From a virus: a DNA stretch of 64,000 nt. The notes below the pieces were generated by a model, which saw only the letters and a program-made list of their open reading frames with translations, did no database searches and was not told the DNA's origin. Shown in pieces: positions 1,709 through 32,375 of the stretch. The translations under genes were made by a program, and so were the position numbers. Numbering within the stretch: position 1 is the stretch's first letter; each line of letters starts with the position of its first letter. The DNA lies in the IMG/VR virus record IMGVR_UViG_3300020048_000014, positions 64,001 through 128,000 of that record. One strand, written 5' to 3'.

Positions 1709-3760
1709 TTAAGCTAATGAGTAATGACTAGATGCGTATCCATCTCTATTATTATCAATGTTAATATATGATGTGCCATTAGTCGGGGAGGGGGCAGTTT
1801 TTTGAATTATTATTGGAGAAGCTGCGCTATTAGACTTATCCCCCCTAGCCATAATTGCAGTATTATTTGCAATAGCCATTAAATATGAATTAGTAGTCAA
1901 TCCAATTTCGACTAATCTTAGATATGAATCATTTTTAGGTTTAGATTGTAAAAATTCATTGATAGCTCCACCCGATTTTAGACCCATTAATTCATCTTTA
2001 TTATTAAATTTATGAATTCTACCATCTTTAATAATAAAATCTTGCATTTCCTCTTTAGGTGGTTCAGTATTAGTGAAGAATGCGCCAATTGATTTAGTAT
2101 ACTTTTCAGGTATGATATAATCAGATATTAGACCACCTAAATATTCTCCTGCTAGTGCTCCTCCAAGTGCTCCCACAATAGAACCTATAGCAGTTCCGAC
2201 TAATGGAATAGGAATAAGAGTTCCTAATGCTCCTCCCAATAATGCACCACCAGCAGAACCTACAGCACCTGTAATAGCGGTTATTATTCTTTTGCCTGCA
2301 TCCTTTTGAAGTTCGTCTTTGGTTATTTCACCTTTATTGTATTTGTCCTTCATTCCTTTTATATCATAAGCTGCAAAAGCGGCTGTTATAGCTGGACCAA
2401 TAATTGGTGCTTTAGATAAAGTTCCTCCGAATAGTTTTGGAATTGCTTTAGGTGATGGTAAAATATTTTTAATATTGGTTTTAACTAATGCTTTGGCAGA
2501 ATCGACTGTTTTTGTTTTAACTACATTTACTGCACTACTTGCTGCTTTACTAACACTACCTGCTGCTCCACTCACTGTTTTACTAATACCGCCTGCTGCT
2601 CTACTAATACCACCTGCTGCACTCGATGCTAATCTACCAACAGAACCTGCTGCTCTACTAATACCACCTGCTGCACTCGATGCTAATCTACCAACAGAAC
2701 CTGCTGCTCTACTAATACCACCTGCTGCACTCGATGCTAGATTGCTAGATTTCTTCGCAATAAAGGTCGCCACCTTCGTAGGTGTTATATTTCTCTTGAT
2801 TCTTTTATATGCCGCCATCGAATTTCTCACCACATTAGGTGTTAATCTTTTAATGGTTCGGGTTTTAAAATTTTTCAATGCTTGTAATGGTTTTCCAAAA
2901 ACATTAGATACTACCCCCTTCAAGCTAGTTAATATTTTAGCTCCTAAAATAGCAGCTAATGAAGATAAAAATCCACCACTTGTATTGCCTTTACCATTAC
3001 CATCATCTTTTCCTTTTTTAGAACTACTGGAAAATTCGCCGAAACTATTTATACCTTTCGGTTTAGACGTTAGTGTTTTTAATTTGGTGTCTTTTTTTTG
3101 TCTCCTTTGCTCATCAAAAAATTGCCCAATTACTATTTTAGCCCAACTGAGTGTTCGACTTTTTTCCGCCCCTTCTAATGTAGAAGGTTTGGATTTGATT
3201 GGTATCGCTTTAGGCTTTTTATATACTTCTCTACTGAGACTTAACAATGTTTTAGGTTTTTCAGCTTCGGTTTTTTTAGCTTCGGGTTTTTCAACTTTAG
3301 GCTTTTTATATACTTCTCTACTGAGACTTAACAGTGTTTTAGGTTTTTCAGCTTCGGGTTTTTTATATACTTCCTTTTTCTGTAAAAGAGGTTTAGGTTT
3401 TTCAGCTTCGGTTTTTTTAGCTTCGGGTTTTTCAACTTTAGGCTTTTTATATACTTCTCTACTGAGACTTAACAGTGTTTTAGGTTTTTGTTCAATTTTT
3501 GATGAGGCTATCTTGACATCTTTATCCTTCTGTAATTGTTTTCGAAAAAAAATATTCGAAGATATTTCAGAAGCTTCGGATATTCTAGATTTTTCAGTTG
3601 AAGTTAATCTTGAAGGAGTGTTGTCATCAGTAAATGTGGAACCTTTCGATTTTAAAATATTTTTGGATGTCACGCTATTCTCTGAATTATTTTTCAGAAA
3701 ATCCTGAGTCAATTCGCTCTGTTTTTGTAAAATATCTAAAAGTGATCCTACTATATCCAT
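1709..3760 (-). CDS. Tape measure / baseplate hub protein (gp29-like) with internal repeats
   Basis: 683 aa, Ala/Gly/Lys-rich, hydrophobic GGALLGGALGTLIPIPLVGTAIG segment, tandem repeats, tail cluster context. Confidence 0.6.
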   Translation of the reverse strand: MDIVGSLLDILQKQSELTQDFLKNNSENSVTSKNILKSKGSTFTDDNTPSRLTSTEKSRISEASEISSNIFFRKQLQKDKDVKIASSKIEQKPKTLLSLSREVYKKPKVEKPEAKKTEAEKPKPLLQKKEVYKKPEAEKPKTLLSLSREVYKKPKVEKPEAKKTEAEKPKTLLSLSREVYKKPKAIPIKSKPSTLEGAEKSRTLSWAKIVIGQFFDEQRRQKKDTKLKTLTSKPKGINSFGEFSSSSKKGKDDGNGKGNTSGGFLSSLAAILGAKILTSLKGVVSNVFGKPLQALKNFKTRTIKRLTPNVVRNSMAAYKRIKRNITPTKVATFIAKKSSNLASSAAGGISRAAGSVGRLASSAAGGISRAAGSVGRLASSAAGGISRAAGGISKTVSGAAGSVSKAASSAVNVVKTKTVDSAKALVKTNIKNILPSPKAIPKLFGGTLSKAPIIGPAITAAFAAYDIKGMKDKYNKGEITKDELQKDAGKRIITAITGAVGSAGGALLGGALGTLIPIPLVGTAIGSIVGALGGALAGEYLGGLISDYIIPEKYTKSIGAFFTNTEPPKEEMQDFIIKDGRIHKFNNKDELMGLKSGGAINEFLQSKPKNDSYLRLVEIGLTTNSYLMAIANNTAIMARGDKSNSAASPIIIQKTAPSPTNGTSYINIDNNRDGYASSHYSLA
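2592..2739 (-). repeat. 54-bp tandem repeat (about 2.7 copies) encoding SRAAGSVGRLASSAAGGI
   Basis: Unit cctgctgctctactaataccacctgctgcactcgatgctaatctaccaacagaa starts at 2592, 2646 and 2700. Confidence 0.9.
3205..3490 (-). repeat. Imperfect coding repeats (about 87-bp unit) encoding KPKTLLSLSREVYKKPKVEKPEAKKTEAE
   Basis: Three KPKTLLSLSREVYKKPK copies plus one KPKPLLQKKEVYKKP variant in the translation. Confidence 0.85.
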
Positions 3761-10774: not shown

Positions 10775-12586
10775 TTAAGTAAACCAGCGATTCATTGCAT
10801 CATAAGATTCTTGTGACATGGATCTACTCGGATCAACATGAGGCATACCACCGTTTAATGATTGCCACCCGTCTGCTAATAATCCAGCCATTTCATCATC
10901 ACCTTCCCCAAACGCACCAAATGCCATTGGAGACAAATTAGAATTTTCAATTCTGTCTACTTGTTCATTGGTATATATAGAGGTAGCATTTTCGAAATAT
11001 TTTATACCGTGATCATACGGAGAAATCTTCAAAGGTTTACCATAGTCGTCTAATTCATCGATTTCAAAATAAATTTCCGTGATCTCATTGAATAGAATCA
11101 TCAATGCCCAAACGAAAGCCATAACTCGGTCATCATGTTCTCCCCCCTTAGCTTTCCATGTTCCATTAGGATAACGAACAAAAGTTTTAAACTCATTTAG
11201 TGTATTGATACTTCTAAATGTCACATTCCTCATCTCATTAATGAAGTATCTTTGATTAAGAATTGCGGAATGCTTGGTATTAGTATGAGATATAACACCA
11301 TATTGAACATTCATTCTATTTGCTTTTTTAGCTCCCCATGATACTACTTTCTCGTAGCCAAAATCAATAGCTAATCGATCACAAACCTGACCACCTTGAT
11401 TATTTCTTTCGATTAATACTAGCGGGCTACCCCAGTTTAATAATATATCATGTAATTTATTAGAAAACTCTGCGGGAGCTATTTGATTATTATGATACTC
11501 CGCTACTTGTTGTATATCTCTTAAATCTGTAATATCTAATATTTGAATAACTGATGCATCTCCACCAACACCTTCAGCAACGTCTACTCCTGCAACATAT
11601 AATCTACTAGCATCAGGGTCTTCCCAGATTTTATAATGTCCTTCATCCAATAAATGTCTAGGTTCTGTGCATCGTTGTTTGAGGTTGTCAAAAAGTTCAA
11701 CATCAATGGCGGCGGTTCCATCATCACTGAAATGACATTCGTATTCTTGCTTGAAAGCTTCATATGATCCAAGTTTAGCAATTTCTTTTTTCTTCCATGC
11801 TTCATCTCTTCCGGGAATCTCTGTCCACATCACCTCCTCGGCATGGAACTCGTTCCAATCGTCCGTTCCCTCTTTAGTTGCGGCATCATAGTATCTAAAG
11901 AATACATTATTCTTGCCTTTGGGAGTCGATGTTATTAAAATTCTGGAAGTCTTGGCTCTTGAAATAGTCGGTATAACCGATTTCATGAAATCTTCGACAA
12001 TACTTTCGGGTTCAATGAAGGCAAGCTCGTCCAATAAAAGTAATTGAATGGTTTGTCCTCTGGCAGCAGATCCAGTAGTGGTCGATATACCTATAACACT
12101 ACCATTAGCAAATTCCGAACTTTCTTGCCCCCAAGTTACAACCGCAGGCTTCAACCATACTGGTAATTCTTGATAAGCAAGCTTAACTCTTTTAAAGATC
12201 ATTTTTGCGGTATCTTCTTTGTTTGCAACAATGACCGTGTTTTTATGGTCGTGGAAACAAGTGAACCATAGTGCTAATATAGTAAGCACTGTAGTTTTTC
12301 CTGATTGACGGCTCGACAATACAATATTGAATCGATTCTCTTTAAACGCTTTGAGTAATCTTAATTGATAAGGTAAAAGCGGAATCAGCATTTTTCCTAA
12401 ATCTGGTTCAATGATGTAGAAGTAATTTTGCGCGAAGTATACAAGATCATTTTTACATTTGTCGATCTCTTCCACCATCGCTGGAGTATATTCAAACCTA
12501 GCTTCTGATGAGGGTAGATTAGGATTACCTAGATACATTTCTCTTTTAGAGAGTTTCGGATCTTTTATTTTAGCGGGTCGTCCCAT
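10775..12586 (-). CDS. gp17: Terminase large subunit
   Basis: YLGNPNL, SRQSGKTT Walker A, LLLDELAF Walker B, ITSTPKG, GVDVAEGVGGD, HDDRVMA. Confidence 0.97.
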   Translation of the reverse strand: MGRPAKIKDPKLSKREMYLGNPNLPSSEARFEYTPAMVEEIDKCKNDLVYFAQNYFYIIEPDLGKMLIPLLPYQLRLLKAFKENRFNIVLSSRQSGKTTVLTILALWFTCFHDHKNTVIVANKEDTAKMIFKRVKLAYQELPVWLKPAVVTWGQESSEFANGSVIGISTTTGSAARGQTIQLLLLDELAFIEPESIVEDFMKSVIPTISRAKTSRILITSTPKGKNNVFFRYYDAATKEGTDDWNEFHAEEVMWTEIPGRDEAWKKKEIAKLGSYEAFKQEYECHFSDDGTAAIDVELFDNLKQRCTEPRHLLDEGHYKIWEDPDASRLYVAGVDVAEGVGGDASVIQILDITDLRDIQQVAEYHNNQIAPAEFSNKLHDILLNWGSPLVLIERNNQGGQVCDRLAIDFGYEKVVSWGAKKANRMNVQYGVISHTNTKHSAILNQRYFINEMRNVTFRSINTLNEFKTFVRYPNGTWKAKGGEHDDRVMAFVWALMILFNEITEIYFEIDELDDYGKPLKISPYDHGIKYFENATSIYTNEQVDRIENSNLSPMAFGAFGEGDDEMAGLLADGWQSLNGGMPHVDPSRSMSQESYDAMNRWFT

Positions 12587-12597: not shown

Positions 12598-12626
12598 CTA
12601 AATTATCTTTATTAAATATAGATATT

Positions 12627-13235
12627 ATGATGATGAGTCAATTCGATATTCTACAAGAGACATTAGGAGTCAAACATTTAAATCCTGATGGTAAAAGAAA
12701 AGAACGGAGAATAAAAAGACTTAATTCTTGGAAGATTAGAGATTCTAAGAATCCTAGAGAAAAGTTCATAGAATTAAAAAATCTTTTGAAGGGATTAGGA
12801 TATAAGATAATAAAGGTTGAAAGACAGTCGGCACATACCATTAGAAATAAGCGAATAGTTGCACTAGAGAAGACACCCGAATTGAGAAGGGGTTCAAACA
12901 CTCCAAGATACCATAATCAATTATATACACTAGCACATGAAACAGGACACGTTCTTCAATGGGATAATGTGACAAACATTAAAAATTTAAGTAATTTTTT
13001 CTTCAATAGAATATATCAGTCTTCAAATGAAGAGGCTGAAAAATTTTTACAAACTATTTTTTATGAACTAGATGCATGGGAAAAAGGAGAGCAATTCATA
13101 CCTAAAGAGTTGTTAGATGGATACTACAACGATGCTAGATGGGCGATTGGGACATATATGAGAAATAAACCAATCGATGTAAATTTAGATGATTATGATT
13201 TCTTGAAACCTTTGCTCGATAAGTTTTTACGATAA
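12627..13235 (+). CDS. Hypothetical protein with HExxH zinc-metallopeptidase-like motif
   Basis: LAHETGH motif plus downstream ELDAW. Start moved from 12459 (overlaps terminase) to the ATG at 12627, 8 nt after TAAATA. Confidence 0.6.
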   Translation: MMMSQFDILQETLGVKHLNPDGKRKERRIKRLNSWKIRDSKNPREKFIELKNLLKGLGYKIIKVERQSAHTIRNKRIVALEKTPELRRGSNTPRYHNQLYTLAHETGHVLQWDNVTNIKNLSNFFFNRIYQSSNEEAEKFLQTIFYELDAWEKGEQFIPKELLDGYYNDARWAIGTYMRNKPIDVNLDDYDFLKPLLDKFLR

Positions 13236-14072
13236 ACAAGCCGGAATAGCTATTTCATTCCCAAATCCTTTCAATTCAGAAATTTCTACCTTAGTTGGAA
13301 TAATGCCTCTATATTTTTCTTTATATTCTCTTAAGGGTCTAGCGGATCTAGCCGAATACCACCATACCAGATTACCTTGAACCATGTCAGAATGTTTAAA
13401 TTCTAAATCTGAAACTCTCCATCCTTCTTCTGATGATTCTCTGATAGCAGCTTCCATAGGATCTTCACCGGGATCGACCTTACCCCCCGGAAGACCCACC
13501 TTAACTCCCTTATCGTCCGATGCTCTATCTTTTGGTCTGGTTGTTGCAGCAATATTTCCGTCAGGAAATTGATATACTACAAAAACTGCAAATGGTGAAG
13601 CATTCACCGATTCTTTATAATATTTATCGGATGCTACATATCTACTTTCAGTTCCCGTATAATTTCCATCGTAATCATATACTGGATATTCTTCGTATTG
13701 TCTTTTTATTTCTGGATAAAATTCCCTAATATATTTAATTGTTTTTTTTTGTGCCGGGGTTTTTGGATTTATATGATCACATAAAAATTCGTTGAATTCT
13801 CCTTTCACTATTCTAACCCACCCTTTTTTCAGTAATATATCAGATGCGTCAACATCTTCTGGTATATCCATGATAATTAATCTATTTGCTACCTCATCAT
13901 GTTGCGCCCAACCTTTAACAATTTCGAGATTTCCACTTCTATCCATCCAGAATCCATATGGGGGATATCTTGGCAATTTTTTTAAATTGTTTATTTCTAA
14001 TGGATGAGTGAAGTTAGATTCATTCACGATTCCAACGTTATACATATAAAAAAAATTAGAAAATCTCATCAT
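13227..14072 (-). CDS. Nudix hydrolase fused to an N-terminal domain of unknown function
   Basis: Nudix box GLPGGKVDPGEDPMEAAIRESSEEG in the C-terminal half. Confidence 0.8.
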   Translation of the reverse strand: MMRFSNFFYMYNVGIVNESNFTHPLEINNLKKLPRYPPYGFWMDRSGNLEIVKGWAQHDEVANRLIIMDIPEDVDASDILLKKGWVRIVKGEFNEFLCDHINPKTPAQKKTIKYIREFYPEIKRQYEEYPVYDYDGNYTGTESRYVASDKYYKESVNASPFAVFVVYQFPDGNIAATTRPKDRASDDKGVKVGLPGGKVDPGEDPMEAAIRESSEEGWRVSDLEFKHSDMVQGNLVWWYSARSARPLREYKEKYRGIIPTKVEISELKGFGNEIAIPACLS

Positions 14073-14106
14073 AACAATTATTTAGTTATTAATATTAAAT
14101 ACATAT

Positions 14107-15090
14107 ATGAGAGAACGAGACATTACTTCTATCGGAGATATTTATGGCAAAATGCTTAATACTGTTAGGACTATTAAGGAATCTAAAGCACCTAAAACCT
14201 TTGACGGGGAATTCCGTTCGAAGAAACGAAAGGATGGTCCTGAATCTGCTGATGGTTATAATAAAGCTGAAAATAAAAAAGCTGGAGAATATAATGAAGA
14301 AGAAGACGAAGAGGATGATGTCTCGAAATATCTTCCTAAATCAAAAATGGAAAAATCTTCTAATAAATTGAAGGAAAAATTAAAAAATCCCAACATCACA
14401 GACAAGGATAAAAAGATTATTACTAAGTCTTTAAAAAATCTTGAGTCTGGTATGGAAAATTCTGAATCAGAAGAAATTCAAGAATCTAAAAAAATTGCAA
14501 CAAAAATACTAAATAAGCATATGAGCAAATCAGCTTTCGACACACTATTCAATAAAGTTCTCAAAGAAAACTTCGGTCAATCCCAAGAAGGCGACGATCT
14601 CGATGCCCTTGGTCTTGATGATTCCACTCCAGATGCCGACATGGGCGATGATTTTGGAGGAGATGAAGATTTCGGAGGTGAAGAAGATTCAGTAACATTT
14701 ACACTTGATCGTGCGACCGCACAAACCCTCATTGACGTTCTCCAAGGTTCTCTTGGCGGGGAAGATGAAGGAGAAGATGAAGGAGAAGGCGAAGATGACC
14801 TAGATTTCGGTGGAGAAGATGATGACTTTGGCGGTGAGGATGATGGTATGGACTTCGAAGAAGACGAAGAAGAAGGAACCAAACCTGCTCCTGATAAGAA
14901 AGCTGCTTTCCAAGCTAAGTCTAATAAAGTTGGTGGTCACGCCAATCCAAAGGGTAAGAAGACCGCTAAAACCGACGTAACTGATGAAACTGGCACTAAG
15001 ACCACTACTCCATCATTTGCTGCCCTACAAGGCAAGTCGAATCAAGTTCCCGGTTCGACTCTAAAGGCTAAAGCACAGTATTTCCAATAA
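14107..15090 (+). CDS. Highly acidic late protein (possible head core/scaffold-like) with nested in-frame start at 14521
   Basis: D/E/G-rich tract, basic C-terminus; TAAATA-N5-ATG at both 14107 and 14521. Confidence 0.6.
   Translation: MRERDITSIGDIYGKMLNTVRTIKESKAPKTFDGEFRSKKRKDGPESADGYNKAENKKAGEYNEEEDEEDDVSKYLPKSKMEKSSNKLKEKLKNPNITDKDKKIITKSLKNLESGMENSESEEIQESKKIATKILNKHMSKSAFDTLFNKVLKENFGQSQEGDDLDALGLDDSTPDADMGDDFGGDEDFGGEEDSVTFTLDRATAQTLIDVLQGSLGGEDEGEDEGEGEDDLDFGGEDDDFGGEDDGMDFEEDEEEGTKPAPDKKAAFQAKSNKVGGHANPKGKKTAKTDVTDETGTKTTTPSFAALQGKSNQVPGSTLKAKAQYFQ
14510..14515 (+). promoter_or_regulatory. Intragenic late-type promoter TAAATA
   Basis: 5 nt before in-frame ATG 14521. Confidence 0.6.
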
Positions 15091-15124
15091 TACTTAAATA
15101 AAATTCAACAATCAAAAAAGCCTG
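15081..15124 (+). repeat. 44-bp direct repeat, copy 1
   Basis: tttccaataatacttaaataaaattcaacaatcaaaaaagcctg, identical to 17412-17455. Confidence 0.95.
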
Positions 15125-15144
15125 CCTAAACAGCGGGCTTTTTT
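15114..15144 (+). terminator. Rho-independent terminator
   Basis: AAAAAAGCCTGC-N7-GCGGGCTTTTTT (one G-U pair). Confidence 0.8.
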
Positions 15145-15166
15145 GTTTTTAGATTAAATAATATCA

Positions 15167-16846
15167 GTGAAACCTTTTAAAGATTTTTTCAATGAAACAA
15201 ATTTGCACATCTTAAATGAGAGAATATATGGAAACACAGGATGGGTATATCATAGAACAAGAACTAATCCCGAAAATAGTGATATCGTAAAATTTGGTAT
15301 AAATACAACTCTTAATACTAGTGCTATGTATGGCACTGGATTCTACACTACATATAACATAGAAGATCAAAATAGAGATAGAATGAAGGCTATATATGGA
15401 AAATATATAGTAAAGGGTAAGATTAATCTATCTAATTTCGTAATATTGGATAGACCAATATTTGATATGTTGAATATGAATACTACATTTGAAAAATATC
15501 TGGAAAATATTTACAGCCTGTTGCCCTCATATGTTTATCAGGTTGAAAATAAACACAAATTTGAAAATGATTCTGACGACCCGGATGATCGACCGTATCG
15601 AAGAACGTCACAAATAGCTCGTGATTTTTGGAAACAATTTAAAAAAAATGGATACCGTGGAATAATATTCACCGGAGCATTGGATGGTCATGTCGCGGTC
15701 ATTTGGGATAGACAGTCATTCATCCCTAGCTCATATTCGACAGATGATGGATCTTCTTGGGTGAAACTGAAATCAGATATCAGATACATATATAGACCCA
15801 TTGACGAATTGACTGAATATGATCCACAAAAACATAACGAAAAAACAAACAATCAGCTAACATCCAAGCTTCCAAAATCTATACGGGGTGTGTTAGGTAA
15901 TGTTAAAGAATCACTCCGCTACATAAAAACTCATTCAGATCTTTCTGGAAAAATTAAAAATATATTATTACATGAAATATCCAAAGATCCAGAATCCGCT
16001 ATAAAGATAGCAGTTGAAGAATTTCAAGGAGTCGATGTCCCGCCCATAATATTACATAATATAGGCAGAAAAATATATACATATATAGAGTTTTTATTAA
16101 GAAACAATCTACCCGTCGCAAACGAAGTTATTTCTGTGATGGGTGGACTGGATGATTCGCTTGTATCGGTATATATTGATAAATTAATAAATTCCGGCGT
16201 CAGCTTCAACCATTCAATTTTATCAAAGATTGATAATGTGCAGAGAGTCATTCGATATATAAACATCTTCATACAGCGAGGGGGAGAAATTCCTCACGTA
16301 TTATATACAAAAATTGGACAATCTAAAGAATATAAATATATTTCTGATTTATTATTGAACGATAAAATTGATCACGATTTATTGTCTCAATATATACCAT
16401 CGAATTCAATGGCATGGGTTTATTATTATCATGCTACTAAATCAGATCCTAACAAAATACCCAAAAATATATTAATCAAGTTATTGGAAAATGGTATAAT
16501 GGCGGAAGAAATACGTGATCCGTTTGATGCTGTACGCTATGTCGAAAAATATTCTGATATTTCGACTATTAGAGGTGTTATATTTAAACTTATATCGACC
16601 GAACCAGATGCGGCGATGATTTGTGTATCATATCTTCTCCACAACAATAAAGATGTTCCAAACATATTATGGAAATCTATAATCGATAATGCTTTATTGG
16701 CTAAAATGTTCGCAACGGAAGATGATATACCATACTCTAAAATACCCGTCGAGTGGAAACAGAAATTAATAGATGGGGGTATGGGGTGGATATTTGAGTC
16801 AAATGGACGAAAATTTGATAAACTCTTTAAAGATTTTTTTTTATGA
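15167..16846 (+). CDS. Putative ADP-ribosyltransferase-fold protein with helical C-terminal region
   Basis: GWVYHRT and YGTGFYTT resemble the His and Tyr strands of H-Y-type ART folds; GTG start 6 nt after TAAATA; leader MKPFKDFFNE. Confidence 0.55.
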   Translation: MKPFKDFFNETNLHILNERIYGNTGWVYHRTRTNPENSDIVKFGINTTLNTSAMYGTGFYTTYNIEDQNRDRMKAIYGKYIVKGKINLSNFVILDRPIFDMLNMNTTFEKYLENIYSLLPSYVYQVENKHKFENDSDDPDDRPYRRTSQIARDFWKQFKKNGYRGIIFTGALDGHVAVIWDRQSFIPSSYSTDDGSSWVKLKSDIRYIYRPIDELTEYDPQKHNEKTNNQLTSKLPKSIRGVLGNVKESLRYIKTHSDLSGKIKNILLHEISKDPESAIKIAVEEFQGVDVPPIILHNIGRKIYTYIEFLLRNNLPVANEVISVMGGLDDSLVSVYIDKLINSGVSFNHSILSKIDNVQRVIRYINIFIQRGGEIPHVLYTKIGQSKEYKYISDLLLNDKIDHDLLSQYIPSNSMAWVYYYHATKSDPNKIPKNILIKLLENGIMAEEIRDPFDAVRYVEKYSDISTIRGVIFKLISTEPDAAMICVSYLLHNNKDVPNILWKSIIDNALLAKMFATEDDIPYSKIPVEWKQKLIDGGMGWIFESNGRKFDKLFKDFFL

Positions 16847-17360
16847 AAATATCCATCTAATAGATAAAAATAAAGATATCCTTGATGATGTTACAGATGA
16901 AAAAATCGGAGAAGAGAAATACAAAGAATTTAACATAGATTTTGATGATGGTGGGAGGGCATATGGTAAAATTCAAAACGGAATTGCTTATATAGCTGGT
17001 ATACAATCACCCAAAATTGATATCTTGACTCCAAGAAGAGGAACTAAAACTTATCAGAGAGTTTTAAAACTTTTATCTAAAAACGGAATTAATACTATTA
17101 AAATTGATATTCAAAGTAAAGACTCTAGAATAGCTATTGATCATTTACTTAAAAAAAATGTTTTAATAAATCCCAGAGAAATGACCGGATTGAGTATTGA
17201 TCAATACCCTAGAAAATTTGATATAAATTATGATAAATTGATGTTAGAATATCGTCATAATCTTGCCGATGGAACCCCCGCGCCTTCTCTCCAAGCACAT
17301 AATGGTAAAAATCCAAATATTTTAGATAAGAAGAATCTACATACTATCGGGCCATATTGA
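16803..17360 (+). CDS. Hypothetical protein; start uncertain, possibly joined to the upstream ORF by a +1 shift at T9
   Basis: ORF-track frame; leader motif split across frames at 16834-16842; C-terminus homologous to part of 17492-18037. Confidence 0.6.
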   Translation: MDENLINSLKIFFYENIHLIDKNKDILDDVTDEKIGEEKYKEFNIDFDDGGRAYGKIQNGIAYIAGIQSPKIDILTPRRGTKTYQRVLKLLSKNGINTIKIDIQSKDSRIAIDHLLKKNVLINPREMTGLSIDQYPRKFDINYDKLMLEYRHNLADGTPAPSLQAHNGKNPNILDKKNLHTIGPY

Positions 17361-17411
17361 AAAAAGGTAGTTACTGACACGTTCATCCAATACATGACAA
17401 CTGAGCAAGGG

Positions 17412-17455
17412 TTTCCAATAATACTTAAATAAAATTCAACAATCAAAAAAGCCTG
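17412..17455 (+). repeat. 44-bp direct repeat, copy 2
   Basis: Identical to 15081-15124. Confidence 0.95.
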
Positions 17456-17477
17456 TCCTAATCGACAGGCTTTTTTT
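17445..17477 (+). terminator. Rho-independent terminator
   Basis: AAAAAAGCCTGTC-N6-GACAGGCTTTTTTT. Confidence 0.85.
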
Positions 17478-17491
17478 ATTAAATATTTATA

Positions 17492-18037
17492 ATGAAATCT
17501 TTTAAAGCATTTTTCTATGAGAATCTAAACAATGAAATAGATCCAAATACACCATACATAGTAATTGATAAAAAAACTAAAGAAATAGTTTGGAGAGGAA
17601 CTTATAGTAAACGTGATATTGCTCGGAGAGTAGTAGATAGACGAGACAATGCTTATGGTGGATATAGATTTATCGCAAGAATTGCTAAACCTGAAGAGAT
17701 ATTGAAGGAATATGCTCACAATAATGCAGATGGAACACCTAAACAAACATTAAAGGCTCATAATGGTAAAGGTGGTGGTGCGAATATAGGATTGGATGCC
17801 AAATATCAACATACTGTCGGACCCTATCAGAAAAAGGTAGAAAAATTGAATGTTGTAAATAGTATTCTTACATTTCCTGAATTAGAGGATGCTGGTATTA
17901 AAGATATTATGAATATTAAACTTCCTATTATTTTTAAAAATGTTAAGAACAGTAAGGCAGATGTTCAGATTTTCAAGAATCAAAAAGGAATGATTGTCGG
18001 TAAAGTTATTAAACCATCCCCCGGTCTGGGTAAATAA
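17492..18037 (+). CDS. Hypothetical late protein with capsid-targeting-like leader
   Basis: Leader MKSFKAFFYE; TAAATA-N6-ATG. Confidence 0.75.
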   Translation: MKSFKAFFYENLNNEIDPNTPYIVIDKKTKEIVWRGTYSKRDIARRVVDRRDNAYGGYRFIARIAKPEEILKEYAHNNADGTPKQTLKAHNGKGGGANIGLDAKYQHTVGPYQKKVEKLNVVNSILTFPELEDAGIKDIMNIKLPIIFKNVKNSKADVQIFKNQKGMIVGKVIKPSPGLGK

Positions 18038-18041
18038 TGTT

Positions 18042-18893
18042 ATGGGATGCCCTATTACACCACTATCTTGCCTAGATCCAGTTAATATATTTGCTGGTGT
18101 ATATAATCCTCGATGTGGTGGATTTGCAGATCCTAGTAATTTTCAAGCCGAAAGAGCTATATTCAAAAGCGGTTTTGAAGAACTTATTCAAAACTTTGGA
18201 GTGGAGGCAAACTATTATGTGAATGATTTTAATTTATCTGCGATGAATGTTCTATATGGAGAACATCCAACCCAAGAGTATTCTGGTCCATTTATTATAA
18301 AGGCGTATCTAGAATTAGAAGAAAGTGTGTCACTATCTAGATGGGGGATGGAATCAGATGATGAATTAACTGCTTATATTAGCATTCAGACATTTACCGA
18401 TACTTTTATTCAATATATGACAACCGAACAAGGATTGATCGTAACTGATGCTTATGGTAATTCTCTGACTGTCGATACAATCGCTCTTAATTTTTTCAGA
18501 GATAATGGGCAAAGAATAGAACCAAAATCAGATGATTTGATGGAGATAACTGCTCTTGGATGCGATAGACCGGGGGATAGAGGATCTAAAATATTTAGGA
18601 TAACTGAAGTTCTTGATCAGAGTGTTAGCTCTGGTATTAATCCAATGATGGGACATTATATATGGAAGATAACCGCAAAACGTTATGAGTCTGATGGTTC
18701 TACGAATGCGCCTAGCGAAGAAGGGAACGATCAAGTATATGATAATACATTTAGTGGGAAGTTATCATCCGTATTATTCCCTAGTTTAACTGCCGAATCT
18801 AAAGTCTATCCTTTTAACGTTGATCAAATCTCGAAAGAGGAAGTATATGATATGTCGAAAAATGATAATAGTATTTATGGGGAATATTATTAA
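18042..18893 (+). CDS. gp14: Neck protein, T4 gp14-like
   Basis: ELIQNFGVEANYY...FIIKAYL...RWGMESDDE...PKSDDL...FRITEV...IWKITAKRY. Start moved to 18042 (TAAATA-N5-ATG). Confidence 0.7.
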   Translation: MGCPITPLSCLDPVNIFAGVYNPRCGGFADPSNFQAERAIFKSGFEELIQNFGVEANYYVNDFNLSAMNVLYGEHPTQEYSGPFIIKAYLELEESVSLSRWGMESDDELTAYISIQTFTDTFIQYMTTEQGLIVTDAYGNSLTVDTIALNFFRDNGQRIEPKSDDLMEITALGCDRPGDRGSKIFRITEVLDQSVSSGINPMMGHYIWKITAKRYESDGSTNAPSEEGNDQVYDNTFSGKLSSVLFPSLTAESKVYPFNVDQISKEEVYDMSKNDNSIYGEYY

Positions 18894-20992
18894 TCTATTA
18901 ACTCCAACATTTGATATAATGTGTCCATGCTCATATGTTTAAATGTATCGTTATTAATATCATCAATTGAAATAGTTGTTTTATTGTTATTAAAATCAAT
19001 AATTCCTCCTATCGGAGTATTATCATATTGTTCAACATATTCAAAAAATAAATAATATTTTTCTATATCAGAGAAATTAACAATATCTGGTAATACTAAT
19101 GGCCATCCCCAATCTTGGCTATAAGATGATAGTGGATATGTTGATGATAGTGGTTGATACGTGTTTAATAAAGTATATACATTTGAAAATTTCTCCAATG
19201 CTACAATCGGAGTATTGGAGTTTACTATATATGTCATACTATCTATCTTATCTCCTATATTAATACCATATTCCTCTTTCGTAGTTCTTCCTCGTATATC
19301 GAAATTTTCTCTAAATTTATTAGTTACACCAGTAAGTTTAAATTTATCTATCGAACCCAAATTGACCAATCTCTTAATCTTTTCTGGATATGTATATCGT
19401 TCTTCTCCCTTATCATTATATCCAATAAATTGTCCTAACGAATCCAAGAAATCCAATTCACACGAATCAATATCTTGAATATTTTGAGTAAAATTAGATA
19501 TTTTTTCATATATTTTAACCCCAAGAGCTTCGTGATCAGATTCAGAATTTCCTAATACATTACCCAGAAAATCTTCAAATAGAACATTTTTATCCAATAA
19601 GGTTTCTTGAAATCTCAAGTCCATTAATGTTGTTTGTGGATCAAAATCTTCATTTATTTTCCATATATCATAATAATTTATATCCGAAATATTAAATTTG
19701 TTGGAAATTGTATTCAATTCGTAAAAAATTGATTGATCATTAATAAATGATCCAGATATTTTAATATAAATATTTGATAGATAATCTTCATCTGAATGTG
19801 GAAATTTAATACATCCCCTAAATGATCCCGTATGAACATAGCTCGATAAAGTATCGTTGATAGACATTATTTCATATTTCGAAGGATCTATAATCACATT
19901 ACTGTCCGTATATACTGAAATATCTAATGATGATAACTGAATTATTGGAAAATTTTTAACCGATGTATTGAGCGAATCCTTTATTTTAACTACAAACGGA
20001 ATTTTACTATCGAAAAATTTAATATCCGATATTAGAAAAGATGATATTGGATAATACTCACCATCTAATCCAGATGATGTTATGGATAATCTTTCCACAT
20101 TATCATTTTCTATTATTTGATATTTTAAATCTATACCCAATGTATTAAAATATTGAGGATTTATATATTGATTTCTATCAAATATAATATTATTCGTTTT
20201 ATCGAATTTAAATTGAATAGTAGAACTATCGACTATAGTATCATCTTTAATATATACTGATTTTGAAGCCGAAAGACCGACAAATATTGCTCCTTCGTCT
20301 TTTTTGTCACAGTATATAATAGAATTATTATATACTTTAGCATATAATTCTATAGGATTAAAATCTAATTTCGATATGGGATTAAATTGATAGCTCTCCA
20401 TATAAAAATTATATACCTTTTCATATAGACTATAACTATTTTGTAAGTGGGAAAATTTATTATTTTTAATATCCCAATAATTTAAACTATTCGAACCATC
20501 GACAGTATAGTATATAGACGAAGCATTTTGATAATTTGGGTAATAAGAATTCACTATCAATTCATTAGAAAACTGACCATTTTTTATAATTAAATTGGGT
20601 TCGTTTACTAAAATATATGATCCATCCTCTGTTAACATGTAGTAACCATCTTCAGTCAATAAGTAAGATATTGAATCTATGGATATATTAAAAGTAAATG
20701 GTATAAAATTATAAACTTCTATCTGTTTATTGAATGTTGATATCATTGCATTAGTATCGCAATCATATACAATTAATGACACATTATATATTCCGGGAAA
20801 TTTATAAGTTTTTAATGCTGAAATATTTCTTGATGTTGTATTATCTCCAAAATCCCATACGACTCTACGAGATAATTGATCGGATATATCAGGAACAAAT
20901 AATAGTGGGGCTATTTCAATACAATATGTGGACAATGCGTCCGTATTTTTGTAATCGATAGATCTAAATGTCGTGAAAGTAGTTTTATTCAT
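18890..20992 (-). CDS. Baseplate wedge/structural protein with PKD-like domain
   Basis: VWDFGD...KTYKFPGIYNVSL PKD signature; coupled to gp6. Confidence 0.6.
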   Translation of the reverse strand: MNKTTFTTFRSIDYKNTDALSTYCIEIAPLLFVPDISDQLSRRVVWDFGDNTTSRNISALKTYKFPGIYNVSLIVYDCDTNAMISTFNKQIEVYNFIPFTFNISIDSISYLLTEDGYYMLTEDGSYILVNEPNLIIKNGQFSNELIVNSYYPNYQNASSIYYTVDGSNSLNYWDIKNNKFSHLQNSYSLYEKVYNFYMESYQFNPISKLDFNPIELYAKVYNNSIIYCDKKDEGAIFVGLSASKSVYIKDDTIVDSSTIQFKFDKTNNIIFDRNQYINPQYFNTLGIDLKYQIIENDNVERLSITSSGLDGEYYPISSFLISDIKFFDSKIPFVVKIKDSLNTSVKNFPIIQLSSLDISVYTDSNVIIDPSKYEIMSINDTLSSYVHTGSFRGCIKFPHSDEDYLSNIYIKISGSFINDQSIFYELNTISNKFNISDINYYDIWKINEDFDPQTTLMDLRFQETLLDKNVLFEDFLGNVLGNSESDHEALGVKIYEKISNFTQNIQDIDSCELDFLDSLGQFIGYNDKGEERYTYPEKIKRLVNLGSIDKFKLTGVTNKFRENFDIRGRTTKEEYGINIGDKIDSMTYIVNSNTPIVALEKFSNVYTLLNTYQPLSSTYPLSSYSQDWGWPLVLPDIVNFSDIEKYYLFFEYVEQYDNTPIGGIIDFNNNKTTISIDDINNDTFKHMSMDTLYQMLELID

Positions 20993-30602: not shown

Positions 30603-32375
30603 ATGAGCAATAAAAAAATCTCCGAATTGACTTCTGCATCTCAACCTTTATCCGGTAAAGAAACTGTTGTTATGAATCAGAATGGTATTACGGTTACTGC
30701 GGTGTTGAGTGCTATTAAAGTTTATACCACAGATTCTAATACTGCATTTACAAATATTAATAACAATTTTTCAGTAGGCCAAACAATATCGGGAGAGTTG
30801 TCTGCTACCGCTATTAATTTAACTGGAAGTGCTCTAAAACTGCGTAGAACTTCAACCAGTAACTCATCAATAGGATTAACAAATGTATCATTGAGCGGTG
30901 GTAATGTCAATTTATTTCTTGTAGGTAATAATGCTGGTCTTGGTGCTAATGCTAATAATTCTAATTTCTTAGGTCAGGCCGCTGGTCTTGGTGCTACTAA
31001 TGCTGGTAATTCTAATTTCTTAGGAGCGAATGCTGGTAATGGTTCTACTGGTGCTGGTAATTCTAATTTCTTAGGAGCGAATGCTGGTAATGGTGCTACT
31101 AATGCTAATAGTTCTAATTTCTTAGGTAATGCTGCTGGTTTTGGTGCTACTGATGCTAGTTTTTCTAATTTCTTAGGTGTCAATGCTGGTCTTGGTGCTC
31201 TTTCTGCTTGTCATTCTAATTTCTTAGGTGAGAATGCTGGTAATGGTGCTACTGATGCTAATAGTTCTAATTTCTTAGGTAATACTGCTGGTTTTGGTGC
31301 TACTAATGCTCACCATTCTAATTTCTTAGGTTACGGTGCTGGTGGTTATGACGCCGCCGAAGGGGGATTCGCTACTAATGCTTATTATTCTAATTTCTTA
31401 GGTTGTAATGCTGGTAATAGTGCTACTAATGCTAGTTATTCTAATTTCTTAGGTGTTAATGCTGGTAGTGGTGCTCTTAGTGCTAATAATTCTAATTTCT
31501 TAGGTTTTAATGCTGGTAGTGGTGCTACTAATGCTAATAATTCTAATTTCTTAGGTAATGGTGCTGGTATTGGTGCTACTAATGCTTGTTATTCTAATTT
31601 CTTTGGTGTTAATGCTGGTGGTTATAGTAATGCTACTTTTACCGGTGCTACTAATGCTCGTTATTCTAATTTCTTAGGTTATAATGCTGGTGTTGGTGCT
31701 ACTAATGCTTGTAATTCTAATTTCTTAGGTTACAGTGCTGGTCGGACTGCTCTTTCTGCTTGTCATTCTAATTTCTTAGGTTATGGTGCTGGTGTTGGTG
31801 CTACTTATGCTAGTTTTTCTAATTTCTTAGGTCGTGATGCTGGTAATGGTGCTACTTATGCTTGTTTTTCTAATTTCTTAGGTTTTAATGCTGGTGGTTA
31901 TAATTCCAGTGGGGGTGGGGTATTCACTACTGATGCTCATAATTCTAATTTCTTAGGACAGAATGCTGGTAGTGGTGCTTTTTGTGCTCATAATTCTAAT
32001 TTCTTAGGTAATGGTGCTGGTAATGGTGCTACTAATGCTTGTTTTTCTAATTTCTTAGGTAGTGATGCTGGTTCTGGTGCTACTAATGTCAATAGTTCTA
32101 CTTTTATAGGTAAAGAGTCTGGTAGATTTATAAAAACCGGAAGCAATAACATTATGGTGGGATTAAGTGCAGGAACTTCAAGTCCTAATTTATCTGTAAT
32201 ATCTAATTCAATTGCTATTGGAACCGGAGCTACTGTGACAGGTAGCAATCAACTCTCATTAGGATCGACAACAAATCCACTTTCGGTTATTCCCGGAGCT
32301 ACCTTCTCTGGATCTCTATCCGGGTTGAAGATTAGAATAAATAATCAATTCTTTACTATCCCTCTTTTAGCATAA
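30603..32375 (+). CDS. Tail fibre/adhesin-like protein with 21 x 17-aa SNFLG repeats
   Basis: N-terminal KKISELT; repeat SNFLGxxAGxGATNAxx; YadA-head-like SNSIAIGTGATVTGSNQLSLG near the C-terminus. Start moved to 30603 (TAAATA-N5-ATG). Confidence 0.7.
   Translation: MSNKKISELTSASQPLSGKETVVMNQNGITVTAVLSAIKVYTTDSNTAFTNINNNFSVGQTISGELSATAINLTGSALKLRRTSTSNSSIGLTNVSLSGGNVNLFLVGNNAGLGANANNSNFLGQAAGLGATNAGNSNFLGANAGNGSTGAGNSNFLGANAGNGATNANSSNFLGNAAGFGATDASFSNFLGVNAGLGALSACHSNFLGENAGNGATDANSSNFLGNTAGFGATNAHHSNFLGYGAGGYDAAEGGFATNAYYSNFLGCNAGNSATNASYSNFLGVNAGSGALSANNSNFLGFNAGSGATNANNSNFLGNGAGIGATNACYSNFFGVNAGGYSNATFTGATNARYSNFLGYNAGVGATNACNSNFLGYSAGRTALSACHSNFLGYGAGVGATYASFSNFLGRDAGNGATYACFSNFLGFNAGGYNSSGGGVFTTDAHNSNFLGQNAGSGAFCAHNSNFLGNGAGNGATNACFSNFLGSDAGSGATNVNSSTFIGKESGRFIKTGSNNIMVGLSAGTSSPNLSVISNSIAIGTGATVTGSNQLSLGSTTNPLSVIPGATFSGSLSGLKIRINNQFFTIPLLA
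30960..32096 (+). repeat. 51-bp coding tandem repeat array, 21 copies
   Basis: Core TCTAATTTC and GCTGGT present in all 21 copies; repeats 8, 13 and 18 carry short insertions. Confidence 0.95.

Follow-up and report, generated by a model that had tools for sequence, protein, structure and literature searches.

The present work concerns a 2331-bp cassette in the genome of an uncultivated T4-like myovirus of ~197 kb, as its sequence identifies it, and the variable region (slot) between the genes for an acidic protein and a neck protein in which this cassette is found. The stretch of DNA analysed here (referred to as the window) comprises 64,000 nt, viz. bases 64001-128000 of the 196.7-kb IMG/VR virus record IMGVR_UViG_3300020048_000014, and the coordinates below are those of the window unless they are marked as genome coordinates. 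The cassette contains a gene for a 559-aa protein with a predicted ADP-ribosyltransferase (ART) fold (the cargo gene) and is delimited by exact 44-bp direct repeats. The slot is polymorphic, and the cassette is present in some and absent in other phages that are otherwise nearly identical. The repeat itself is likely to be the scar of one unequal illegitimate recombination, which stacked two alleles of the slot one behind the other. The local gene order is TerL (large terminase, minus strand), a NUDIX module, the acidic gene, the 559-aa gene, orfB, orfC and orfD (Table 1), and in this phage the PHROGs recognise the large terminase (10775-12586, minus strand), a tail sheath protein and a gp6-like wedge protein.

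Presence and absence of the cassette in near-identical phages

A megablast search with 13500-19000 and a tblastn search with the neck protein gave no match among 50,697 phage records, and neither a scan of IMG/VR for the exact 44-mer nor a single-protein locus search in that database returned anything. Relatives were obtained by an alignment-based search, by which ~90 loci were fetched and their flanking genes placed by tblastn; ~46 distinct slots were readable among them. Three contigs (viz. the P0001 contig, the P0121 contig and a 9782-nt contig) were compared by gene layout and proteins alone.

The proteins of 559, 185 and 181 aa encoded in the slot were found exactly on several contigs from JGI, ENA and Logan. 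One of these (L090, a MEGAHIT-style k141 contig) is 100% identical to the window over 8558 nt, and a second one from another sample (L091) differs from it by 5 single-nucleotide polymorphisms (SNPs), all in the acidic gene; both contain the two whole 44-mers, 2331 nt apart. A third contig, from Logan (L092), starts inside copy 1 and ends inside copy 2 of the repeat. In two other relatives (L093 and L094) the site is empty. In these, TerL, the acidic gene (328 aa), orfC (181 aa, the only slot gene) and the neck gene are present with a single 44-mer followed by the hairpin T2, and their flanks show 97-100% identity to those of the window. If the cassette were lost by recombination between the two copies of the repeat, then 14901-15124 would become joined to 17456-17700, and this predicted deletion product is the same as L093 base for base across the junction. 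The stretches 15011-15124 (114 nt) and 17412-18037 (626 nt) show no differences from L093/L094, and the identity to them falls to 69% from position 15125. Further, the gene layout of the empty-site relatives recurs in a 9782-nt contig from JGI sample 3300059473, which also yielded the allele encoding P0121 (described below), and one study series yields L091 (filled), L093 (empty), L005 and L089. These results show a presence/absence polymorphism of the cassette among near-identical phages. The original prediction, that recombination between the copies would cleanly delete 2331 bp, agrees with the arrangement seen in L093/L094. Of the empty and alternative cassettes for which it proposed that related phages be compared, both kinds are seen, and the cassette is not fixed.

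The repeat, its hairpins and the start signals

The exact repeats at 15081-15124 and 17412-17455 described in the original prediction are confirmed, as is the statement that they span the last codons of the acidic gene (stop codon 15088-15090) and the left arm of a terminator. The match is exact over 44 nt and ends at both sides. In a 196.7-kb genome of the same composition ~8e-15 exact 44-mer pairs are expected, and among the dispersed (non-tandem) exact repeats of this genome the 44-mer ranks second, the longest being a 50-mer. No third exact copy of it exists in the whole 196.7-kb genome, where an 82-nt module that includes it also matches only two places. Rightward of the 44-mer a weaker similarity continues (78% over 82 nt; a second 50-nt block, 15146-15195 versus 17471-17520 with an offset of 6 nt, also 78%), which takes in the terminator tail, the TAAATA signal and the first ~10 codons. 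As was likewise noted originally, each copy runs into a valid hairpin of its own and a TAAATA-N6 start, the folding energies being about -18 kcal/mol for both. The position of copy 1 is, by alignment, the orthologous one present in all relatives. The loop of T1 is identical to that in relative L003, and T2 is identical to the sole terminator in the empty-site relatives.

The TAAATA signal is found in the entire genome: 79 of the 100 matches to TAAATA-N5-8-[AG]TG open ORFs (open reading frames) of at least 60 aa, whereas for control hexamers this value is 18-40%. It is, therefore, not specific to the slot locus. A pattern of fixed spacing (terminator tail plus AAATA) gave no match, because the spacing varies. 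Other starts with TAAATA-N5-8 are seen, e.g. at 12586(-), 14107, 18042 and 22796(-), some of them with TTGACA ~17 nt upstream. A Shine-Dalgarno (SD) sequence would not fit into the spacing at these starts, and the mRNAs may accordingly be leaderless, or nearly so, or the start signal may be one of a non-SD type. A TAAATA-N5-ATG sequence is also present within the acidic gene (14510-14523), in frame at codon 139, where a start would give a 189-aa product beginning MSKSAFDTLF; this stretch is kept in relatives (L003).

Scars at the right end of the cassette

At its right end, the cassette retains parts of two other genes. The ORF designated orfB starts with an unrelated domain of ~140 aa, which is followed by an incomplete copy (about 17247-17357, from EYRHNLADGTP to HTIGPY, then a stop) of the core module common to the slot genes. 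This copy is identical at 36 of 37 positions to the 120-aa core protein P0190, which comes from a relative whose neck gene is 97% identical, and shows only 56-57% identity to orfC; at the DNA level it is 89% identical to L008. The core homology extends 9 nt beyond the stop of orfB, as far as a junction (J1), behind which lies a relic of 13 codons of a neck gene; the right end of this relic forms a second junction (J2). A microhomology of 2 nt (TT) at J2 makes the duplicated stretch 42-44 nt long. Both junctions are present in L090, L091 and L092. The relic is identical at the protein level to 18396-18434 in the phage's own neck gene, from which it differs at 9 nucleotides, all of them third positions and all synonymous. 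In none of 200,000 simulated sets of 9 random substitutions were all changes synonymous, and the relic must therefore have diverged within a working gene of another genome. Further, the stretch 15136-15195, at the left end of the cassette, is 95% identical to L005. Since the core part of orfB is nearest to P0190 and L008, 15136-15195 is nearest to L005 and the T1 loop is that of L003, the cassette is a slot allele from another lineage.

A run of nine T (T9) places orfB one base out of the frame of the ART gene, and the ORF of the latter ends at the stop that this run creates. If the run had 8 T, then the ART ORF would continue via an internal leader (KLFKDFFYE), which is at present divided between the two frames, into orfB. 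The T9 run is present in L090, L091 and L092, and it is possible that it represents a slippage site, a fixed frameshift or the decay of a redundant gene. The related protein P0121 (670 aa) differs from the ART-fold protein at one of its first ~541 residues (99.8% identity) and diverges beyond them, where an in-frame internal leader (KHFKDFFNH) and then a complete core module follow. The switch occurs at the internal leader, and this point is therefore a mosaic breakpoint. From these sequences, the ancestral ART allele was probably an in-frame fusion. The only homologue of the N-terminal domain of orfB (P0179, 50% identity) is encoded on an unrelated phage contig (L095:3516-5240), beside an ART-PolyVal gene and in divergent orientation to it, and this position may point to a functional connection of the domain with ART genes.

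Table 1. Positions of the slot, the cassette and the flanking genes in the window
Feature	Position	Strand	Description
Acidic protein gene (327 aa)	14107..15090	+	Conserved left flank of the slot; adjoins TerL in relatives
Repeat copy 1	15081..15124	+	End of acidic gene (F Q stop, 15081-15090) and left arm of T1
Terminator-like hairpin T1 with T-run	15113..15145	+	-18 kcal/mol, z = -6.0
TAAATA start signal	15155..15160	+	6 nt upstream of GTG 15167
Cargo gene (559 aa)	15167..16846	+	Leader VKPFKDFFNE, resembling a capsid targeting sequence; predicted ART-fold domain (aa ~22-200); helical C-terminal region
orfB (185 aa)	16803..17360	+	Unrelated domain of ~140 aa, then core copy lacking its end
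T9 run	16834..16842	+	Puts orfB one base out of the ART frame
Core homology past the orfB stop, AAAAAGGTAG	17361..17369	+	9 nt; ends at junction J1
Neck-gene relic, 13 codons, TDTFIQYMTTEQG	17373..17411	+	39 nt; right end is J2, abutting copy 2
Repeat copy 2	17412..17455	+	Same left arm, serving the different hairpin T2
Terminator-like hairpin T2	17445..17476	+	-18.2 kcal/mol, z = -8.1; other loop, compensated stem
TAAATA start signal	17480..17485	+	6 nt upstream of ATG 17492
orfC (181 aa), resident slot gene	17492..18037	+	Leader MKSFKAFFYE, insert of ~60 aa, LKE, complete core module
orfD (283 aa), neck/head-closure-like	18042..18893	+	Conserved right flank of the slot

Proposed origin of the cassette

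The arrangement that we consider likely is one in which two phages that were related but had different slot alleles infected the same cell and underwent an unequal crossover, with a join at 2 nt of microhomology. In the left allele, a start signal and a leader would have been followed by the ART-fold protein, an internal leader, another domain and the core module; the right allele would have consisted of the end of the acidic gene, the terminator, the start signal and orfC. The joint would have linked the interior of the donor's neck gene to the last 10 nt of the acidic gene of the recipient (from 15081 onwards). Most of the redundant core and neck sequence would have disappeared either at the time of this crossover or through a subsequent deletion (J1), leaving the incomplete core and the 39-nt relic. 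If so, then the 44-mer would be simply the stretch between the joint (15081) and the first difference between the two alleles (15125, in the terminator loop). Homologous recombination between the 44-mers would excise the 2331-bp cassette precisely. For its gain by other phages, ordinary recombination in the conserved flanks (on the left, the acidic gene with the terminator, start signal and leader that follow it; on the right, the core module with the neck gene) would suffice, so that the repeats would matter for the loss of the cassette and not for its gain. We infer the order and the direction of these events. That the single-gene slot is the norm in this clade, and that the filled contigs are near-clonal and the empty ones more diverse, favours the empty state as the ancestral one.

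Alternative explanations and points against the proposed origin

The original prediction regarded the locus as a plug-in slot for the exchange of genes by recombination, for which no integrase is needed. The last point is supported, and the polymorphic nature of the slot and the loss of its contents via the repeats also stand; however, the view of the repeat as a designed or recurrent boundary of a cassette is not supported. If the 44-mer together with the terminator/start module were a dedicated and recurrent boundary, similar to the PeSL (promoter-early stem-loop) elements of T4-type phages or to att sites, then the cargo could be excised as circles and inserted again. A composite of terminator and start signal is indeed present at both sides of the cassette, the empty site with a single copy is seen in close relatives, the terminator/start module that follows the acidic gene is conserved across the relatives, and the ORFs flanked by PeSLs in RB49 and phi1 behave in this manner and form mini-circles (PMC2839356). 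However, only two copies of the repeat exist in the 197-kb genome, and copy 2 begins at an illegitimate joint next to a foreign relic, which would not be expected for a site in repeated use. Further, no boundary repeats are present in the ~45 other distinct slots, including the expanded ones; where these slots contain several genes, the genes are 2-18 nt apart and a second terminator is lacking. A designed boundary of this kind is thus unlikely, and an integron or other site-specific cassette was rejected, as nothing points to a recurrent site.

The end of the acidic gene, the terminator, the start signal, a gene with a leader, the core and a part of the neck gene are all present twice, as would be expected if the slot had been duplicated in tandem within one lineage and the left copy had then diverged and decayed. 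However, the nine differences in the relic, every one of them synonymous, require that both copies were functional while they diverged, i.e. that they were in separate genomes, and the left core and the region of the left start signal are nearer to P0190, L005 and L008 than to the right copy. The 44-mer is also exact, yet the sequence adjacent to it is only ~70-78% identical. A tandem duplication is for these reasons highly improbable, and its form in which the duplicate decays within the same genome is ruled out by the relic with its synonymous changes. That the structure was created by the assembly of two co-occurring strains with different slot alleles is the least probable of these explanations. 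In its favour, the record is a metagenome assembly, and strains that differ in this allele come from a single study series and, in one instance, from a single sample. However, the structure has been recovered by different assemblers from different samples (three other assemblies carry it, one of them, with its 5 SNPs, having changes private to it), J1 and J2 have overlaps of at most 2 nt, so that no k-mer path could have made them, and the 141-mer assembly spans the whole 44-bp repeat. The chimera that the original prediction had raised as a possible objection is thus not what is found here.

Several points weigh against the unequal recombination favoured here and the functional picture connected with it. 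The empty relatives could be revertants, formed by recombination between the 44-mers, as the structure would lead one to expect, instead of descendants of the ancestral state, and the asymmetry in the identity of the flanks to the empty-site relatives is modest (98.45% in the acidic gene vs 99.65-100% on the right). An intact donor allele, with the ART gene, leader, orfB domain, full core and neck gene in a row, was not found in the homologue search, which gave only P0121 (ART-core) and, elsewhere, the 50%-identical homologue of the orfB domain. The evidence consists of assembled contigs, from which ongoing excision is a prediction. The ART fold is that of a predicted model with middling scores (Z at most 7.5) and no Pfam match, and the packaging, cleavage and enzymatic activity of the protein are all deduced from T4.

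The slot and its flanks among relatives

The order TerL, acidic gene, slot and neck gene is kept in the closer relatives, whereas in distant relatives TerL is positioned after the neck gene; in most of the related loci the acidic gene was located by tblastn upstream of the slot. The neck protein encoded by orfD matches PHROG 679 ('head closure Hc2', E = 5.8e-7) and has 169 metagenomic homologues, most of which begin at the same Met. No Pfam or PHROG family was matched by the acidic protein, the ART-fold protein, orfB or orfC.

Across the ~46 distinct relatives the slot varies in length from 396 to 2951 nt and in its contents, the slot of this window being the largest (2951 nt). Most slots are of 396-445 nt and contain a single gene for a protein of 107-124 aa, in which a leader of the form [M/V]-K-x-F-x-x-F-F-x-[E/D] is followed directly by the conserved core module (YRHNLADGTP ... 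GRVIK). A minority of slots contain more than this. An ART-PolyVal domain (PF18760, above the cut-off) is present between leader and core in L003/L004, L012, L023/L024 and L046, and L023 has an additional gene of 568 aa. The slot of L007 has a 381-aa gene with a leader besides the core gene, and that of L089 encodes an 830-aa fusion, which includes a homologue of the ART-fold domain of this window. A core gene resembling orfC, with an N-terminal insert, is found in L020, L073 and L076, as the only slot gene (172-173 aa) in the first two and as a 261-aa ORF in the third. By analogy with T4, the slot is probably a hot spot for genes of capsid-internal proteins.

Two other cases of inserted sequences were observed near this locus. 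In comparison with L093/L094 and all other relatives, in which TerL adjoins the acidic gene, the window has a second insertion of ~1.5 kb (12601-14088), consisting of a 202-aa ORF (12627-13235, plus strand) and a NUDIX hydrolase gene (13227-14072, minus strand), whose edges have an overlap of only ~6 nt. The N-terminus of the NUDIX protein, MMRFSNFFY, fits the leader at positions 4, 7, 8 and 9, without the Glu at position 10. In L005:3430-6440 and L008:707-5177, the large terminase gene is in two or three pieces with inserted ORFs between them, one example being a 280-aa ORF between Terminase_6N and Terminase_6C, which suggests introns, insertions of homing endonucleases or similar elements.

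The cargo protein

The first ~215 residues of the cargo protein constitute a module that is present in 35 metagenomic proteins of varied length, with 35-58% identity. For residues 1-221 an AlphaFold2 (AF2) model was obtained with a mean predicted local distance difference test score (pLDDT) of 78.8. The top 50 structures matched to this model by VIA-align are nearly all of the ART fold, which has a split beta-sheet as its NAD-binding core; NatT and MbcT have the highest score (Z 7.5), and the further matches include ParT, tankyrases, PARPs, diphtheria-type toxins, an anti-CRISPR structure and a cyanophage pre-ejectosome protein. In Foldseek, the model matches tankyrase and PARP15 with E of 1e-2 to 1e-3. 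However, no Pfam family was matched by the cargo protein at E <= 0.01, and hhalign of it against the ART-PolyVal proteins of the slot gave a probability of 0.6%. The cargo thus belongs to a family separate from ART-PolyVal, with an ART fold that is predicted from the model. The term 'ART-like' used in the original prediction holds at the level of this predicted fold, but no curated ART sequence family is matched. The catalytic triad of ADP-ribosyltransferases is H-Y-E or R-S-E. In the 35 homologues, the residues H29/R30, Y55, Y60 and D173 show little or no variation, and an H-Y-D catalytic arrangement is possible. If the model is correct, then the protein may have ART activity.

Leader, core module and prohead protease

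In T4 the capsid targeting sequence (CTS) is MKTYQEFIAE (PMC8442874), in which targeting involves positions 4 and 7, and processing positions 8 and 10 (PMC9026906). The leaders of orfC (MKSFKAFFYE) and of the 559-aa gene (VKPFKDFFNE) keep these four positions, a resemblance that is one of sequence only, and most slot genes of the relatives fit M/V-x-x-F-x-x-F-F-x-E/D. Directly before the core module there is usually an [L/I]-x-E motif, viz. LNE, LSE, LKE or the leader's own F-L-E. The genome also encodes a prohead protease of the gp21 type (Peptidase_S77, PF03420; genome 179604-180065; E = 4.3e-29, above the cut-off), and proteases of this type cut behind the Glu of [L/I]-x-E. The core protein has only weak and unnamed matches (<=0.82) in the ESM Atlas. 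By analogy with T4, these features suggest transport of the protein into the prohead by means of the leader, and two cuts by the protease, one behind E10 and one in front of the core. The packaging and injection of the cargo, with cuts at its leader and its L-x-E site, would be expected by this analogy, and the label 'injected effector', given to the cargo in the original prediction, is a putative one.

Outside the window, three more genes preceded by TAAATA have a leader-like start of the form M-x-x-F-x-x-[FY]-F. These starts (MPNFSEFFY, MISFKEFFK and MISFDKYFQ) are at genome positions 8444(-), 185852(-) and 195246(+), respectively, and the leader pattern fits 6 of 131 starts genome-wide, where ~0.35 are expected. 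These three genes may possibly encode further capsid-targeted proteins.

Relationship to known systems and significance

The internal proteins of T-even phages are diverse defence proteins, of which the CTS is the sole common feature (PMC3012670; PMC12373910). The present locus resembles the T-even loci (Repoila et al. 1994, as cited in PMC2839356 and PMC12373910; Mullaney and Black 1996, as cited in PMC9026906) in being hypervariable and made up of non-essential genes, in the T4 type of its phage, in a leader of ~10 residues with the same conserved positions (1, 2, 4, 7, 8 and 10), in a protease of the gp21 type and in the conserved regulatory sequence beside the variable genes. An ADP-ribosyltransferase, Alt, is among the proteins that T4 packages. 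However, the locus is here located between the genes for the terminase and the neck protein, the clade is a distant one that is uncultivated, and a conserved core module follows the cargo, usually behind [L/I]-x-E. Further, the T-even proteins are separate, small and basic, whereas the putative cargo is here often fused in frame (leader-cargo-core).

PeSLs are composite motifs of a terminator and a promoter, between which dispensable ORFs are located in phages of the T4 type (Arbiol et al. 2010, PMC2839356; Comeau et al. 2014, PMC4122927). A sister phage has one motif where these ORFs are missing, and mini-circles are formed (PMC2839356; PMC4122927). As cited in these papers, Repoila et al. 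1994 reported elements analogous to PeSLs at the variable internal-protein loci of T-even phages (PMC2839356; PMC4122927). The likeness to the present case is in the motif of a terminator with a promoter or start signal, which flanks dispensable ORFs as direct repeats and is single in a relative, and in homologous recombination between the motifs as the expected reaction of excision. However, the PeSLs form a multi-copy family on early promoters across hyperplastic regions, whereas the present motif has two copies and uses a start signal found genome-wide, and its second copy would be due to a one-off illegitimate join. In another part of the genome (~9.6-24.5 kb, outside the window), which is presumed to be the early region, there is a family of repeats of 27-37 nt containing TAGTGTTT(A/T)ATC at many intergenic sites, and the TAGTGTTT family could be the true PeSL-like multi-copy motif of this phage. 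Long exact repeats of 87-98 nt and an array of many copies containing TCTAATTTCTTAGGT were also observed within large structural genes (2592-3436 and 30946-32035).

The polyvalent proteins with ART-PolyVal (PF18760), known from phages and conjugative elements, are a further point of comparison. The fusions in the same slot of L003, L012, L023 and L046 resemble them and fit the idea of packaged multi-domain effectors, whereas no match to PF18760 was obtained with the 559-aa protein encoded in this window. It is conceivable, though doubtful, that the slot is a platform for expression, packaging and processing, in which any cargo inserted in frame behind the CTS-like leader and ahead of the L-x-E-core module would be packed into the prohead, released by the gp21-type protease and injected, in which slippage of the RNA polymerase at T9 would produce an ART-orfB polyprotein with an internal leader and cleavage site, and in which the 44-bp repeats would allow reversible loss and regain of all the cargo within the population.

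The principle seen here is already known from the T-even internal-protein loci and from indels of the PeSL type, and a similar logic is seen here in a clade distant from theirs. It provides a clean natural example of the gain or loss of a block of capsid cargo, in which the immediate flanks are identical and the scars reveal the origin of the filled allele, and it puts right the view of the repeat as a site made for exchange. The picture of T-even internal proteins and their CTS is extended by it, and a leader-cargo-LxE-core layout with recurring cargo of the ART type is suggested. The leader and the core might find a further use as packaging tags and, if the proteins of the slot are injected, then the slot would represent a catalogue of effectors for host takeover or counter-defence.

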